From assembly GCA_963771885.1 (NCBI GenBank), contig CAVYVF010000002.1, positions 434,208 to 498,207 of the forward strand: a stretch of 64,000 bases of DNA. Direction: 5' to 3'. Made by a program: the position numbers. Shown in pieces: positions 45,001 through 51,000 of this stretch (position 1 is its first letter; each line of letters starts with the position of its first letter). This DNA is from Candidatus Bathyarchaeota archaeon. Its GTDB lineage: Archaea > Thermoproteota > Bathyarchaeia > TCS64.

Positions 45001-48000
45001 CCACCATGTCGTCAGCCACTACCTTGACGACCACTCCGCTATCGGACGCTTCGAGGACGACGTTGGACCTCTCTGAGAGACCCCGATCAAGCTCGGGCTT
45101 GAGGGAGCTGATGATGATGTCGACAACGTCTCTCGTGGCTTCTACGGTTATCTTTGCCTCGGCTTGACTTCGTCGAGGCTCCAAAATTAGTCTTCTCCGG
45201 GAGGACGGTGGGTCTAGGCCTGGACCCTTGTGGATGCCTGGCCCAGCTTCGTCGTTGGGACGTATGCACCGCCGGCGAACTTGTAGCCGCACTTGCTGCA
45301 GGACCAGATGCCGACGACGCTACGCGTAACCCTCGGGCTCGCGCAGCTCGGGCACTTGTGTGGCTCCTTTAACTGGAGCATTATGCGTGTCCAGCGCTTC
45401 TGTATGGCGGCTCCTCCGCGGGTCCTGAGTCGCAGACCGTACGTCTTCTTCTTTCTTGTCATCGTTAGTCGCCTGTGGCCTTAGCCCTTAACTGGGGCGC
45501 TTTAGCTTGCGCCATATTTATGCATTTCTTAATCTCCTCGGGTGTTAGGCCTTCGGAGCCGCTCTTCTGCATGGTGCAGAGGTGGCCGTCCTCGTCGAAG
45601 GTGATGGTCAGGCGGGCGTCCATGACCTCTTCCTCGTCCGCGGTGGGATCCATGATGAAGTTGTCCCCGATCTTTATGACGCTGACTGGGATGGGCCTCT
45701 TGCACACTGTGAGCGGCACCTTCTCGCCGGTCGGCTTCCCCTCGCTGAATACGGGTTTCTTTGCCCCGAGGAGCGCCGCTACCGCGCCTGCACCGCAGGC
45801 ATCGATGAGGTTGCCGTCGTAGTTGAGGACGTAGAGGTCCACGAAGACTATCTGTACGAGCTTGCCGGGTGTGATGCATAGGTCCTTTGTGTTGAGTGTG
45901 TCAGCGCTGCGTAGTCCCCTGTCGACGACACGGGCGAGCTCTATGCTCTCCTCGCTTGGCGGACCGGGTTCCCACGCTGCGTTGGCGATGGGGGTGAGCT
46001 CGGCGTTTGTCATGAGTACGCCCTCGTCAGGCGTGTCCTCGAAGGGTGTGCCGGTGCCTACCTTGACTCCGACCATTACATGGGACTTGCCGAGCCAAAC
46101 CTCGGCGCTGCCCTCGCTCTTGTAGAGTACATTACGCTTTATCGAGAGTTCGCGGAAGTCGTCGAAGGCGCGGCCGTCCATTCGCTTACCGGTGGACAGG
46201 ACCTCCATGATCTTTTTCTGCTTAAGGTGGCTGACTATGTTGTTCTTGCTCATCTATGGTTCCTCCTTGGTGGGCTGGTCCTCGGACTCAGGCTCTTCCG
46301 GGGGTAGCTCTTGGGGCTTGTCCTGTGGCTGGTCGATGCCGTACTTCTTCTTTAGTGCCTCGCGCTGTATCTCGTAGATCTTTTTGCATCCCTCGATTCC
46401 GAGGGCGAGCGCCTTCTCCGCTTCCTCGGGGGTCAATGTGCCGTCCTGTTGGAGGAGTGTGACCTTACCGAGTTTCGGCATGTAGGCTATGGGCATGTCG
46501 CTCTGCCCCTTCTTGTCCTCGTAGTCGCCGAGGTCGACGACGAGCTTGTCCTCGATCTTGCCGACGGCGCACGCGGAGACGAGGTCCTTCATGGGTATGC
46601 CCGCGTCTACGAGAGCTACTGCGGCGGCGTTGATGCTCGCGCACCTCGTTCCACCGTCAGCCTCGATGATCTCGATGTATACATCGATGCTAGCCCGGGG
46701 GTAGCGTTCGAGGAAGACCGCCGGCTCTAGGGCGGACCTCATGACCATGCTGATCTCCTGGTCCCTACGGGAGGGAGCGGGGGACCTGCGTGGGTCGACG
46801 CTGAATGGCGCCATGTGGTATCTGCAGCGGAGCACAGCCTGGTTGGGCTTGGCGTTGTGCTTGGGGTGCATCTCGCGGGGCCCGAAGACGCCGGCGAGTA
46901 TCTTGTTATTGCCCATTTCGATGTAGGCGGAACCGTCCGCGTTGGGGAGGACGCCGCTCTCTATCTTGATGGGGCGCAGCTCGTCGAAGGCACGCCCATC
47001 GGCGCGCTTCCAGCTGTCAATCTTTGGCTTCTTGGTCCTCGCTGCTGGCTTCCGGGCTGCCGTCTTCTTTGTCGTTGGTTTCTTGCTCATTGTTTTCTCT
47101 CCTTAAGCTGTCGTAAAAACTCTTGAGTCCTGTTCGTGAGCCCGGAGGTGTGCGCCTCCAGCTCTATCTTCTCTATCACCTTGAACACCATCGCCTCTTT
47201 TTCGCGATTTGGTCCGGAGACCAGTATGCGGCCGTTCTGCCCTATGGCAACGCGGCACCCAGTCTCCCTGATGATCATGTTAATCATGCTCCCCTTCTTA
47301 CCGATGAGTCGGGGTATCTTGGAAGGCGTCAGCTTGACGATGAACCCATCGTACATTTTGCCGAGGCCCGGCCCTAATATGCTGAGCACTGGGGTCCTCC
47401 TTCTATCGAGGTCTACTATCCTGGCGACTATTGTGTCGCCGATGTCGAGAATTCGAGTCATGACGAAGTCGGTTCTGAAGGGACGGTCGACGGCGTCGGG
47501 TATACCCATGACCGCCTGATCCTGCGTCCCGATGTTTATCCGCCATTCGCCGAGGTCCATGTCGACAACCACGCCTATGACCTGATCGCCCACAAGCGGC
47601 ATGTAGCCAGTTGAGAGGGCGGTTACGGATACGTTGTCGGGGCGGTAGTTCACGAGGCCCAGGCGCGTGGCGTACACCTGATCCTGGTTGCGGTAGGTAT
47701 TCTCACCCGTCCTGATCCGTCCCTCAAACACTACGTCGCCCGGGAGAACCAGATCCCTGTCCTGGAAGTTCGCGCTCATACATGTTCAACTACTTGAGTA
47801 TTCTTGACTGGAGGTTACCCTGAGTCGCTTTGCCAAGTTTGTCGAGAAGCTCCAATTGCATGGCAGCGGGGAGCTCCAGCACAGCTACCCAGCTTCCATC
47901 TTTCTGCCACTCGTCACGCTTGATTTCACCGTAGTTCTTGACAATGCCGTAGCATTTGGCCGAGTGCTCGGGCGGGACTTTGAGGGCGAGTTGGATGTTC

Positions 48001-51000
48001 TCACTGCTCATGGGCAGGATGGGCCTGAGGAGTTGGACGAGGTCCTTGACCTGCTCCTCCGCCGACTTGAATGGGTCGACGTTGAATCGGACCTCCTCCA
48101 TCGCGTTCTCTATCCTTAGGGGAGGGTGGGGAAGCTTCGTGGCGGGGTCGACGTAGGTCCTCGAGATGATGGTTATGATCTGTCTGAGCTTTTGCTCATT
48201 CATCTCCTTGCGCTGCGCGGAGGTCAGGAGGAACGTGCCCTTCTCGAACATTATTTTGGCGATTTCGAGGGGGTCATCCGTCTTGAACTCGTCCTTGAGT
48301 TTTGACTCGGACGCTTTCTCGCCCTTGTTCGCGTCGGTGAAAATGGTGTCTATGAGGATGACGTTGGCGATGTCTATCGGTTCGCCTTTCTTGTATGAGA
48401 GTCCCTTGTCGGGGTCTACGAGAATCTCGTATTTCTCTCCGCCGTGCTGGTAGCGTACCAGCGTGTAGTTGCTCCCCATTCCGTTTGGCCCTTCTACCTC
48501 ATGTGCTTCTGCACTTCGGAGTCGGGGAGTCTTCGGAATACCTTAGTCTCTAAGGGAACGACGCCAACCTTGACGTTCTCAGGCGTTATGTTTCCGTCGG
48601 ACGCCGTCTTCACTGCCTCTATCGCTAGGCTGATGGCGCCGTCTAGCGTTATGTCGTCCTTGTATTTTTCCTCTAGGAGCTTGTTGGCCTCGTCGCTCTT
48701 CCGCCCTACGGCGGTGGCCTTGTAGCCCCGGTAACTGCCGCTCGGGTCGGTTGTCATTACCCTGCTGCCCTCCGTGTCTACACCTGCTATGATGGTGCTG
48801 ACGCCGAAGGGGCGTACGCCGGCGTGCTGCGTGTATATCTGTGCGATGTCTCCGAGGCGCCTTGCCAGCATCTCCACGTCAACGGGCTCGTCGTAAAGGA
48901 GCCTGTTGCTCTGGGAGAATACGCGAGCCTGACTGATCAGGACTCTAGCGTCGCTGCTCAAACCTGCTATCGCCATTGCTACGTGCTCGTCGAGCTGGAA
49001 TATCTTGCGGAAGTAGTCTCCGTCCTCCAGCACGCTCTCAGGGGACTCGTTAGCCGCTATGGCTACCCCCTGTGGTGACGAGACGCCGACGATGGGAGCG
49101 CCTCTCTTCACCAGCTCCAGGGCGTATTCGACCTGGTAGAGTCTTCCCTCTGGTGAGAAGATCGTTATGGCGCGGTCGTAGGCACGGGGCATGAACAAAG
49201 CGCTGGTTCTCCTCGACTCTCCTTCTCTCGATCGCCCAATCTAATCTAATCTACCTTAAAAAGGGTTTGCCGGCATCGGTCAATAACACCAGAGCCGGCG
49301 AGCGATTTTTTACCCGTGTATGTAACCGGTGCTAGTCGACCTTGACCCCGAACTGGAGGACTGGTACGCATAGGAGGAGAATCGCGGTCGCTGTGAAGAA
49401 GACGGGGAGCAGCCCGTAGTTGCTCGCGATGAATGCTGAGACCATGGGTGCGAGGACGCCCATGATGCTTCCGGGGAGGAAGTAGAGGGCGAAGCCGAGA
49501 CCTCTCTGTCGGGATGGGGAGAGCTTCGCGGTTAGGCTCGAGTTTGATGCCATGCTCAAGAGGTTGAAGAAGCCGTAACCGAGGTAGAAGGCTGTGAAGG
49601 CGAATCCCCACGGTACGAGGAAAGCTATCCCAAAGCTGATGGCGCAAGCGGTCGTAGTCAACACTGTCCACTTCTTCTCCCCGACCTTGTCAGCGAAGAA
49701 GCCACCGAGAGGCGCCGCGATGACACCCATCATGCTCGCGCCGCTGATCACCAGAGCAGCATCACCGACGCTCCAACCCTGATTTTGGACGAGGTATAGG
49801 CTGATGAAGCCGGATACCATGACTGTGCCAAGCGTCTTCACGGCGTTGAACATGATGAAGAAGAGCATGCCACGAGTCACGATTGTTTTCGCCTCGCCGA
49901 CGGGGACCTCCGCTTTCGCCTTGGGCTTTGAAGGCTCTGACGGCTCAGATTTCAGCTTCAGTATCATGAATGTGCCTATGAGGATGGGAAAGAACCAGAA
50001 GAGGTAGACTTGTCTCCACTGGAACGCGAAGAATCCCATGAGGAAGCTGATACTCAGGGGGCCGATGGCCATACCGAGGGTTCCTCCTGCGCCTAAGATA
50101 CCAAGAGCCTTTGATCGATCCTGAGGTTTGGATGTTTTTGTGACGTAGCTGTAGCTCGGCGGATGATAGAACGTCGTGTTTAGGTAGAGTAGGCTGACGG
50201 CGGCTACGAGCATCCAGGGGTTCAGTGTGAATCCTGCGATGAGACTGCCGACGCAGCTGAGAATCTGGCTGAAGAGGATCATCTTCTTCGTTCCGAGTTT
50301 GTCGCTGAGCATCCCAGCGGGAATAGAAAGAATAGCCTGGCAGAGGGGGGGAATTGCCGCGATCAGCCCAAGCTCGTAGTACCCGAGGTTGAACTCCTGC
50401 TTTAAGAGGGGGAAGAGCGTCGTGTGAATATTCTGGAAGGTGTGCGTCAGGGTGTGCGTCAGAACCATCGTGAACAGGCCGAAGGACATTATTGACGTGA
50501 ATTGCTTGAGGCTCGGTTTCTCCAACATATCACCGGCTGTATGGGATTAGCACCAATTCACTCGGTCTGGATTTAAAGCCACCGAGGCTGCAAGGCTTAA
50601 ACGCACTGGAAATGGTGCATATGGTATGATTACCCGCGAGGAGTCACTGGCGGTCGTGAGGCAACATGTGAAGAACGAGAACCTCGTGAAGCACATGATC
50701 GCAGTGGGCGCGATAATGAGAGGGCTCGCCGCAAAGTTCGGAGGCGATCCAGATACGTGGGAAGCAGCAGGCATACTCCACGACGTCGACTACGAGGAGG
50801 TCGGCCAGGACTGGACTAAACACGGCGCACGCTCCGCGGAGATGGTAAAAGATCTCTTCTCCGAGGATGTTCTCTACTCAATCAGGGCGCACAACCCGCA
50901 GACGGGTTCGTTACCCAAGAGTAAGATGGATTGGAGCCTCTACGCTGCTGACGGCCTCTCCGGCCTTATAATCGCGCAGGGTCTCATGATGCCCGACAAG

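Follow-up and report, generated by a model that had tools for sequence, protein, structure and literature searches.

The locus examined here raises two questions: whether a lineage of archaea has truly lost the ribosome anti-association factor aIF6, and, if so, what its retained SBDS protein does. The fold of aIF6 is the pentein, a five-fold pseudo-symmetric alpha/beta propeller, and to our knowledge aIF6/eIF6 is regarded as universal in the archaeal and eukaryotic translation apparatus. In eukaryotes, SBDS (Sdo1) and the GTPase EFL1 evict eIF6 (Tif6) from the nascent 60S subunit; eIF6 is essential in yeast, and failed eIF6 release through SBDS mutations underlies human Shwachman-Diamond syndrome. 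Published work on late-60S factors describes aIF6 as one of only two that archaea consistently possess (PMC8481954).

The genome under study (G000; Candidatus Bathyarchaeota archaeon, assembly GCA_963771885.1) comprises 23 contigs and is 92.24% complete with 6.66% contamination; the window is the whole stretch of 64,000 nucleotides analysed, and feature coordinates count along it. Comparisons drew on an order sample of 79 TCS64 genomes (15 genera, 4 families; 23 high-quality, two single-contig among them), on a class sample of 301 Bathyarchaeia genomes (the 79 of the order and 222 outside it) and, for the aIF6 profile search, on a phylum sample of 151 genomes, and all genomes compared are metagenome derived. 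TCS64 is an order of sediment archaea. The SBDS gene and its neighbours in the window are as follows:

48494..49198, minus strand: proteasome alpha subunit, upstream neighbour of SBDS (Pfam Proteasome, 169.9 bits, and Proteasome_A_N)
47790..48479, minus strand: SBDS, 229 aa (Pfam SBDS_N, 85.9 bits; SBDS_domain_II, 88.6 bits; SBDS_C, 54.8 bits)
47087..47779, minus strand: exosome cap protein Rrp4, with S1 and KH domains (Pfam KH_6, KH_1, RRP4_S1 and ECR1_N_2)
46254..47090, minus strand: exosome RNase PH subunit, Rrp41-like (Pfam RNase_PH, 130.9 bits, and RNase_PH_C)
45465..46253, minus strand: exosome RNase PH subunit, Rrp42-like (Pfam RNase_PH, 90.4 bits, and RNase_PH_C)
44918..45292, minus strand: small Pcc1-like protein that closes the row (Pfam Pcc1, 40 bits)

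The genes from the proteasome alpha subunit to Rrp42 are contiguous on the minus strand, which also carries the Pcc1-like gene, and a proteasome/exosome superoperon is a known context of archaeal SBDS (PMC8024482). All three Pfam domains of SBDS score over their cut-offs and together span residues 4-229 of 229, and this three-domain ORF within the row bears out the claim of a preliminary description of the locus that SBDS is retained. In the class sample, SBDS_N was matched in 73/79 order genomes versus 212/222 outside genomes; seven sequences of the order (G000 and six others) align without gaps to 14 from outside, all of them 228 to 230 aa long, and the ORFs of the order measure 229 to 230 aa in 7/7 cases. 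Within the order, dN lies well below dS (dN/dS of 0.03 to 0.44), these values being rough since dS is saturated for most pairs (0.8 to 2.8). Judged from alignment and substitution rates, SBDS of the order is intact and under purifying selection and is not decaying.

The presence of aIF6 was assessed with three models: Pfam PF01912 (cut-off of 25 bits), NCBIfam TIGR00323 and a class-specific HMM derived from the aIF6 sequences of 20 Bathyarchaeia loci. In G000, a six-frame search with PF01912 gave no match even at an E value of ≤10, while 4/4 archaeal control genomes scored over the cut-off, and TIGR00323 gave none at an E value of ≤10; the best match of the Bathyarchaeia HMM, run with --max against 46,043 six-frame pieces, reached 9.1 bits with an E value of 1.9. 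Across the class sample, aIF6 was present in 210/301 genomes, namely, 210 of the 222 outside the order and none of the 79 within it, the 23 high-quality and two single-contig genomes included (PF01912 cut-off). The absence of an aIF6/eIF6 gene from G000, as claimed in the preliminary description, was thus borne out by all three models, and its contrast of 0/38 order genomes with 76/81 other Bathyarchaeia was reproduced in kind and extended; the observation is confirmed and is stronger than that description could show.

Could a highly diverged or relocated aIF6 still be present, below the detection of sequence profiles? Extreme divergence can escape such profiles, a caveat that the preliminary description itself had raised. 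On the other hand, the most divergent aIF6 proteins among the 148/151 phylum genomes with a match still score about 114 bits versus the cut-off of 25, and the three models, one of them class specific and unfiltered, gave noise alone in G000. Weak PF01912 matches of 12 to 15 bits, the only ones in the 79 order genomes, occur in three of them and proved to be two aldo-keto reductases and one GrpE. Together with the closure of the ancestral aIF6 slot set out below, these results make a hidden aIF6 very improbable.

The position that aIF6 occupies outside the order is informative in this respect. In the outside genome G152, the gene row reads S19e-dsDNA_bind-L39e-L31e-aIF6-LX-PfdA-FtsY, and in the outside loci aIF6 immediately follows L31e in 7/8 and immediately precedes LX in 4/8. 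In G000 (C23:699001-708000), the L31e stop codon overlaps the LX start codon (ATGA) and therefore leaves no room for a gene between them. The same direct junction is found in 20/20 further loci of the order (12 genera, 4 families, two single-contig genomes included), where the gaps between the matched parts of L31e and LX are 7 to 129 bp. A remnant of aIF6 fused to L31e was also considered and rejected: the 135-aa L31e of G000 carries a C-terminal tail of about 55 residues, but this is low-complexity sequence rich in K, E and A rather than aIF6. The slot is thus closed in all 21 order loci, with the flanking genes contiguous on one contig, and because L31e adjoins LX directly, the absence of aIF6 reflects a deletion and not, as the preliminary description had already held, a gap of the assembly.

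That the absence is instead an artefact of assembling or binning metagenome-derived genomes deserves attention, since gaps at this locus do occur: (i) aIF6 was not matched in 12/222 outside genomes, seven of which also lack FtsY, and LX was absent from all five of these seven in which it was sought (G208, G276, G280, G219 and G141), the whole block therefore missing from the assembly; and (ii) two contigs terminate exactly at L31e. Within the order, however, the contiguous L31e-LX junctions effectively refute this reading, and with none of the 79 genomes matching, we consider its probability close to negligible. The same outside genomes bear on how far the loss extends. The five without LX and FtsY are not counted as further losses, nor are G101, G108, G126 and G232, in which FtsY is present, synteny is broken or contigs are short, and whose families otherwise have aIF6; G162 and G296 are covered by the FtsY search alone. 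Among the non-matching outside genomes, only G081, of family f7, looks like a real loss, and in a six-protein tree it groups with the order at 90% support. The loss probably reaches beyond the order to the neighbouring family f7, in line with the suspicion in the preliminary description that it may not be unique to the order.

The three HMMs, the 79 genomes and the closure of the slot in the gene row all support a true loss of aIF6 across the lineage, with SBDS kept. Since aIF6 is gone lineage-wide while SBDS is retained, SBDS presumably works without aIF6 here. The preliminary description had called SBDS the release partner of aIF6, which holds for eukaryotes, but in Sulfolobus solfataricus the release of aIF6 needs aEF-2 with GTP hydrolysis and not aSBDS, which inhibits release (PMC8024482). 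Its proposal of an aIF6-independent role for SBDS is sound, although such a role was to be expected and is not new, because of these release data and because in Pyrococcus abyssi aSBDS has been found on idle 70S ribosomes, at the peptidyl-transferase centre (PTC), uS12 and the P stalk as well as the sarcin-ricin loop (SRL) (PMC13324472).

The loss of aIF6 also raises the question of whether another protein has taken its place at the large subunit. L24e, which belongs to the site where aIF6 docks in other archaea, is encoded in the window:

1207..1377 (G000:C2:435414-435584), minus strand: ribosomal protein L24e, Pfam-matched part (PF01246, 72 bits)

Both L24e and uL14 are kept in G000. Published work shows uL14 to be a docking protein of eIF6, and the bacterial factor RsfA/RsfS, unrelated to it, uses the same uL14 surface (PMC3400551), so non-orthologous solutions exist. 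A non-homologous protein might accordingly have displaced aIF6 in the order and do the same job at the uL14/SRL site, as a block to subunit joining or as a late-50S placeholder, with only the gene family changed. The inability to delete aIF6 in Haloferax volcanii (PMC3828320) speaks for such a displacement and makes simple dispensability unexpected. The genomes of the order are also not reduced, those of family f1 being about 0.8 to 3.1 Mb and most of these 1.5 to 3.1 Mb, and new genes are therefore plausible.

Against this stands the outcome for each candidate. RsfS (PF02410) has no match in G000 at an E value of ≤1, while 9/14 control genomes, all of these nine bacterial, scored over the cut-off, and it was rejected as a bacterial-type substitute. 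G000 encodes a protein of HibA architecture (386 aa, four CBS domains and a C-terminal HPF/RaiA domain), for which Pfam S30AE gave a match in 12/16 order genomes versus 2/45 outside; this contrast is a sensitivity artefact, as profile A1, built from 14 of the C-terminal domains, matches 36/37 order genomes and also 66/104 outside, and a gain of HibA as order-specific compensation was rejected. Remodelling of the uL14 docking surface was also rejected, on the evidence of alignment columns: order-specific switches affect 3/56 conserved columns versus 4/156 in five neighbouring control proteins (Fisher p=0.38), the three (E116D, A126V and A133G) are all conservative, and uL14 scores are ordinary in the basal families f2, f3 and f4. 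Co-loss of Nmd3, a partner of Tif6 in eukaryotes, was likewise considered; the sole NMD3 match in G000 is a MetRS zinc knuckle, and NMD3 exceeds the cut-off in 0/101 class genomes, so its absence is not specific to the order. The preliminary description had also reported aEF-1beta as missing in the same way: it is indeed unmatched in the order (0/20), but it is also unmatched in families f5, f7, f12 and f14, and its absence is patchy and not parallel to the loss of aIF6.

No dedicated replacement of aIF6 turned up in these sequence searches, which are blind to a structural analogue that shares no sequence similarity. As they stand, the genomic data require none, although some compensation beyond the candidates tried may exist in the order. 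We regard displacement by a non-homologous protein as unlikely, and prefer, as quite probable, an ancestral deletion of aIF6, probably shared with f7, after which 50S maturation and subunit joining would proceed without aIF6 and SBDS would serve in aIF6-independent work. The course of events under an ancestral deletion would be as follows: (i) the common ancestor of the order, probably together with f7, would have deleted aIF6 from between L31e and LX, leaving all examined descendants without any aIF6 homologue; (ii) late 50S maturation and the control of subunit joining would proceed with no block of the aIF6 type on uL14; (iii) on 50S or idle 70S particles, SBDS would occupy the P-site/PTC as well as the GTPase centre; and (iv) this occupancy may serve the proofreading of rRNA maturation with the exosome, the protection of idle ribosomes or both. 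Binding of SBDS at the P-site/PTC and GTPase centre of the large subunit is described for Pyrococcus and for eukaryotes (PMC13324472).

A non-reduced order without aIF6 but with SBDS under selection is a natural experiment that separates the two proteins, and it backs, on independent genomic grounds, what biochemistry has claimed, that the role of archaeal SBDS is aIF6 independent and probably ancestral. What renders aIF6 dispensable becomes testable by comparing ribosomal proteins and rRNA of the order with those of its relatives, and aIF6 is unsafe as a universal archaeal marker. We found no earlier report of the loss in the literature, a search that took in neither phyletic tables of arCOG/COG nor the supplementary files of Bathyarchaeia pangenome papers. 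We would suggest only tentatively, and with some doubt, that the order, probably along with the family sister to it, constitutes the first aIF6-null lineage to be met in nature among free-living archaea; its ribosomes would then bear, at the uL14/SRL site, a so far undiscovered factor not homologous to aIF6, or would have become able to mature and to control subunit joining with none there. On either outcome, archaeal-type ribosomes would not be bound to the eIF6 step, which is essential in yeast and reported so for Haloferax, and the original function of SBDS would be older than eIF6 release and separable from it.

The arrangement can be set beside several known systems: (i) the eukaryotic eIF6 release pathway shares with G000 the three-domain SBDS family, L24e and uL14, but its substrate is absent throughout the order and EFL1 is absent from Archaea (PMC8024482), and therefore SBDS cannot act as an eIF6-release cofactor here; (ii) Sulfolobus solfataricus resembles the order in that its SBDS is independent of aIF6 eviction and lies in the exosome superoperon (PMC8024482), whereas Sulfolobus has aIF6 to block 50S joining and the order has none, so that the anti-association step at uL14 must be missing or done otherwise; (iii) Pyrococcus abyssi has aSBDS on idle ribosomes alongside the hibernation factor HibA, a pair matched in G000 by the intact SBDS and the protein of HibA architecture, but aIF6 is present in Pyrococcus too, where it was observed in 50S-aIF6 particles (PMC13324472); (iv) bacterial RsfS/RsfA would be the evident counterpart in function, as a block to subunit joining at uL14 (PMC3400551), yet it is unrelated to aIF6 and has no match in G000. 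Ribosomal proteins and translation factors of archaea are also known to have been lost in particular lineages, in a patchy way. The loss of aIF6 is less expected than these, given its consistent presence in archaea (PMC8481954) and its non-deletability in Haloferax (PMC3828320), but it resembles them as the clean loss, in one clade, of one element of the archaeal/eukaryotic translation machinery.

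The preliminary description held that this genome, G000 (2,457,701 bases in 23 contigs, 92.24% complete, 6.66% contamination), has no aIF6/eIF6 gene, and the profile searches bear this out. PF01912 gave no match in six reading frames even at E<=10, in a search in which four archaeal control genomes scored over the cut-off; the independent NCBIfam model TIGR00323 likewise found nothing at E<=10; and an HMM built from 20 aIF6 sequences of other Bathyarchaeia, run without speed filters on 46,043 six-frame pieces of the genome, returned only noise (top match E=1.9, 9.1 bits). The absence had also been asserted for the whole order TCS64, and that claim can be extended: with PF01912 and a 25-bit cut-off, aIF6 was detected in 210 of the 301 genomes sampled from the class, divided into 0/79 within the order (15 genera, 4 families) and 210/222 outside it. 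None of the order's 23 high-quality genomes has it, nor has either of two single-contig assemblies, and weak PF01912 matches in three order genomes (12.1-15.3 bits) proved, by Pfam, to be two aldo-keto reductases and GrpE. Among 151 genomes of the phylum, each at least 85% complete, aIF6 was present in 148, the exceptions being G000, G304 (85% complete) and G414, a genome whose family has aIF6 in 14 of 15 members. Since the most divergent true aIF6 in this sample still scores about 114 bits, a homologue hidden in the order would need far greater divergence than any other in the phylum, and little remains of that explanation.

The decisive evidence for loss is synteny. Loci of 12.6 kb around aIF6 were taken from eight genomes outside the order and their neighbours mapped onto G000; aIF6 lies immediately after L31e in seven of the eight and immediately before LX (L18Ae) in four. 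In one of them, G152, the row reads S19e, dsDNA_bind, L39e, L31e, aIF6, LX, prefoldin alpha and FtsY, and G000 has the same row minus aIF6 at C23:699001-708000 (locus L024), where the slot is closed as follows:

L31e: L024 3209-3616 (G000 C23:702209-702616), ending in ...GGAATGA
LX: L024 3613-3819, its ATG overlapping the L31e stop codon

Low-complexity extensions of L31e are lineage-specific: G000 has a C-terminal K/E/A-rich tail of about 55 residues, and G152 (L019:5492-5980) an acidic N-terminal extension of about 70 residues, provided that translation begins at the upstream ATG. The tail in G000 was considered as a remnant of aIF6 and rejected, being K/E/A-rich low-complexity sequence.

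Regions upstream of FtsY from 20 further order genomes, which together with G000 represent 12 genera, all 4 families and both single-contig assemblies, gave the same picture. S19e, dsDNA_bind, L39e, L31e, LX, PfdA and FtsY are contiguous in 20/20, only 7-129 bp separate the L31e match from the LX match where an aIF6 gene requires about 670 bp, and tblastn found no aIF6 in these loci. The contiguous junctions indicate that aIF6 was cut out of its ancestral position before diversification of the order. Gaps in the assemblies do not explain this, and little remains of the idea that the absence is an artefact.

It had further been suggested that the loss may not be unique to the order, and this holds in part. 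Twelve class-sample genomes outside the order lack an aIF6 match, and in seven of them FtsY, too, is unmatched at E<=1e-55. LX is absent as well from all five that were searched (G208, G276 and G280, of one genus in family f17, together with G219 and G141), and in G276 and G280 the contig stops exactly at L31e; since these five assemblies are missing everything in the block aIF6-LX-PfdA-FtsY, they were rejected as specific losses. Even at 98% completeness and with 7 contigs, G219 has no aIF6, LX or FtsY. It seems that assembly or binning repeatedly breaks at the stretch following L31e, or that this stretch has moved in the genus of G208, G276 and G280. In G101, G108, G126 and G232, FtsY is present with different or truncated upstream DNA, and aIF6 otherwise occurs in their families. 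The part of the suggestion that stands concerns G081, the sole genome of family f7 (89% complete), where L31e and FtsY share a contig and aIF6 lies beside neither. A maximum-likelihood tree of six proteins of the aIF6 row, concatenated to 594 columns (LG+G4+F), places G081 with the 21 order genomes (ultrafast bootstrap 90%) and pairs it with family f3 at only 49%, on a long branch. aIF6 was thus probably lost once, no later than the base of the group formed by the order and f7, with support for f7 that is thin, coming from one long-branch sequence.

SBDS, in contrast to aIF6, is retained, in a co-directional row of the window:

48494-49198, (-) strand, proteasome alpha
47790-48479, (-) strand, SBDS, between proteasome alpha and Rrp4
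47087-47779, (-) strand, Rrp4
46254-47090, (-) strand, Rrp41-like RNase PH
45465-46253, (-) strand, Rrp42-like RNase PH
44918-45292, (-) strand, Pcc1-like gene

This is the context of the archaeal SBDS exosome/proteasome superoperon as portrayed in PMC8024482. An MFS transporter (49332-50528) breaks up the ribosome/proteasome gene neighbourhood, and downstream of it lies a 561-aa ORF (51640-53325, (-) strand) whose alpha/beta-hydrolase domain, at the N-terminus, has matches to the PET hydrolase-like and dienelactone-hydrolase families.

The SBDS ORF encodes 229 aa, of which residues 4-229 are covered jointly by the Pfam domains SBDS_N (85.9 bits), domain II (88.6) and the C domain (54.8). SBDS_N was matched in 285 of the 301 class-sample genomes (73/79 in the order, 212/222 outside), the six order genomes without a match being 62-94% complete. 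Seven order ORFs (229-230 aa) and 14 outside ORFs (228-229 aa) align without gaps, with 31 of 230 columns invariant, and Nei-Gojobori dN/dS is 0.03-0.44 within the order and mostly 0.03-0.21 within its family f1, a rough indicator of purifying selection given that dS (0.8-2.8) is partly saturated. Order sequences score slightly lower with Pfam than outside ones; nine columns near-fixed outside differ in the order, chiefly in f1, and the f3 sequence mostly retains the outside state there. The gap-free alignment, the dN/dS values and the presence in 73/79 genomes indicate that SBDS is maintained in the order, not decaying.

A second factor, aEF-1beta, had been described as missing in the same way. 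PF00736 did not match G000 at E<=10; it matched 65 of 101 class genomes, among them 0/20 of the order, at true scores of just 42-73 bits. In two outside loci the gene comes after a small zinc-ribbon gene; in G000 the homologue of this zinc-ribbon gene (53 aa, C23:877433-877594) has behind it a spacer of 133 bp and then a convergent gene, and aEF-1beta is missing (comparison loci L079-L084). The absence thus looks real in G000. The likeness to aIF6 holds for the order but not beyond it: families f7 (0/1), f5 (0/1), f12 (0/7) and f14 (0/2) are also unmatched, f16 (3/5) and f23 (4/6) partly so, and the class-wide pattern is patchy.

That a non-homologous substitute does the job of aIF6 we consider unlikely. 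G000 encodes a protein (386 aa, C22:50515-51675, (-) strand; L126:1459-2619, (-) strand) with the architecture of HibA, an archaeal hibernation factor described only recently: four CBS domains, with HPF/RaiA (S30AE) as the C-terminal domain. By Pfam S30AE alone this last domain was found in 12/16 order versus 2/45 outside genomes (14/61 in total). A profile of 14 HibA C-terminal domains detected it in 36/37 order and 66/104 outside genomes (102/141 sampled Bathyarchaeia), and the outside occurrences led us to reject the HibA-like protein as a specific replacement. The aIF6 docking site was also considered: L24e, presumably part of it, is present (window 1207-1377), and uL14 occurs in 61/61 sampled genomes, with the lowest scores in derived f1 genera (120.9-123.5 bits). 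In the basal f2, f3 and f4, families that are likewise without aIF6, uL14 scores 135-143 bits, similar to the 125-144 bits outside. Counting as switched any column at least 90% conserved outside and changed in at least 80% of 16 order sequences, we found 3/56 in uL14 (E116D, A126V and A133G, all conservative and C-terminal) versus 4/156 pooled over uS17, uL24, eS4, uL29 and Rpp29 of the same loci (Fisher p=0.38), which gives no clear signal of uL14 remodelling. NMD3 binds Tif6 in eukaryotes. PF04981 found no NMD3 in G000, a weak match at C23:168692-168874 being a methionyl-tRNA synthetase zinc knuckle, and since 0/101 class genomes pass the cut-off, although 4/4 archaeal controls have NMD3, a co-loss with aIF6 was rejected. 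RsfS, an unrelated bacterial factor described in PMC3400551 as docking on the same uL14 surface, had no match in G000. Genome streamlining was rejected as well, order genomes not being reduced (about 0.8-3.1 Mb in f1, most 1.5-3.1 Mb).

Published experiments bear on both factors: (i) in Sulfolobus solfataricus, aIF6 release requires the GTPase aEF-2 and not aSBDS, which inhibits release, and the authors propose pre-rRNA maturation on the large subunit as the ancestral SBDS role (PMC8024482); (ii) cryo-EM of stressed Pyrococcus abyssi places aSBDS on idle 70S ribosomes, and in this species 50S particles with bound aIF6 were seen too (PMC13324472); and (iii) in Haloferax volcanii, aIF6 deletion failed among more than 100 clones screened, and depletion gave a strong phenotype on glycerol only (PMC3828320). 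An aIF6-independent SBDS role in archaea agrees with experiment and is no novelty. What does appear to be new is the absence of aIF6 from a whole lineage; in titles, abstracts and selected passages of open-access PubMed Central and bioRxiv papers we found no report of such a loss.

To conclude, HMMs, 79 genomes, the closed slot and the SBDS alignments confirm the initial observation of aIF6 absence with SBDS retention and support its core interpretation: as judged from genomic sequence, the deletion is clean, ancient and lineage-wide, and SBDS is retained under selection. We hold it to be probable that the loss is a true one, with SBDS acting independently of aIF6 and with no need of a dedicated replacement. 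The way in which the order's cells manage without aIF6 is inferred. aIF6 is regarded as universal and essential, and TCS64 is valuable as a natural knockout.
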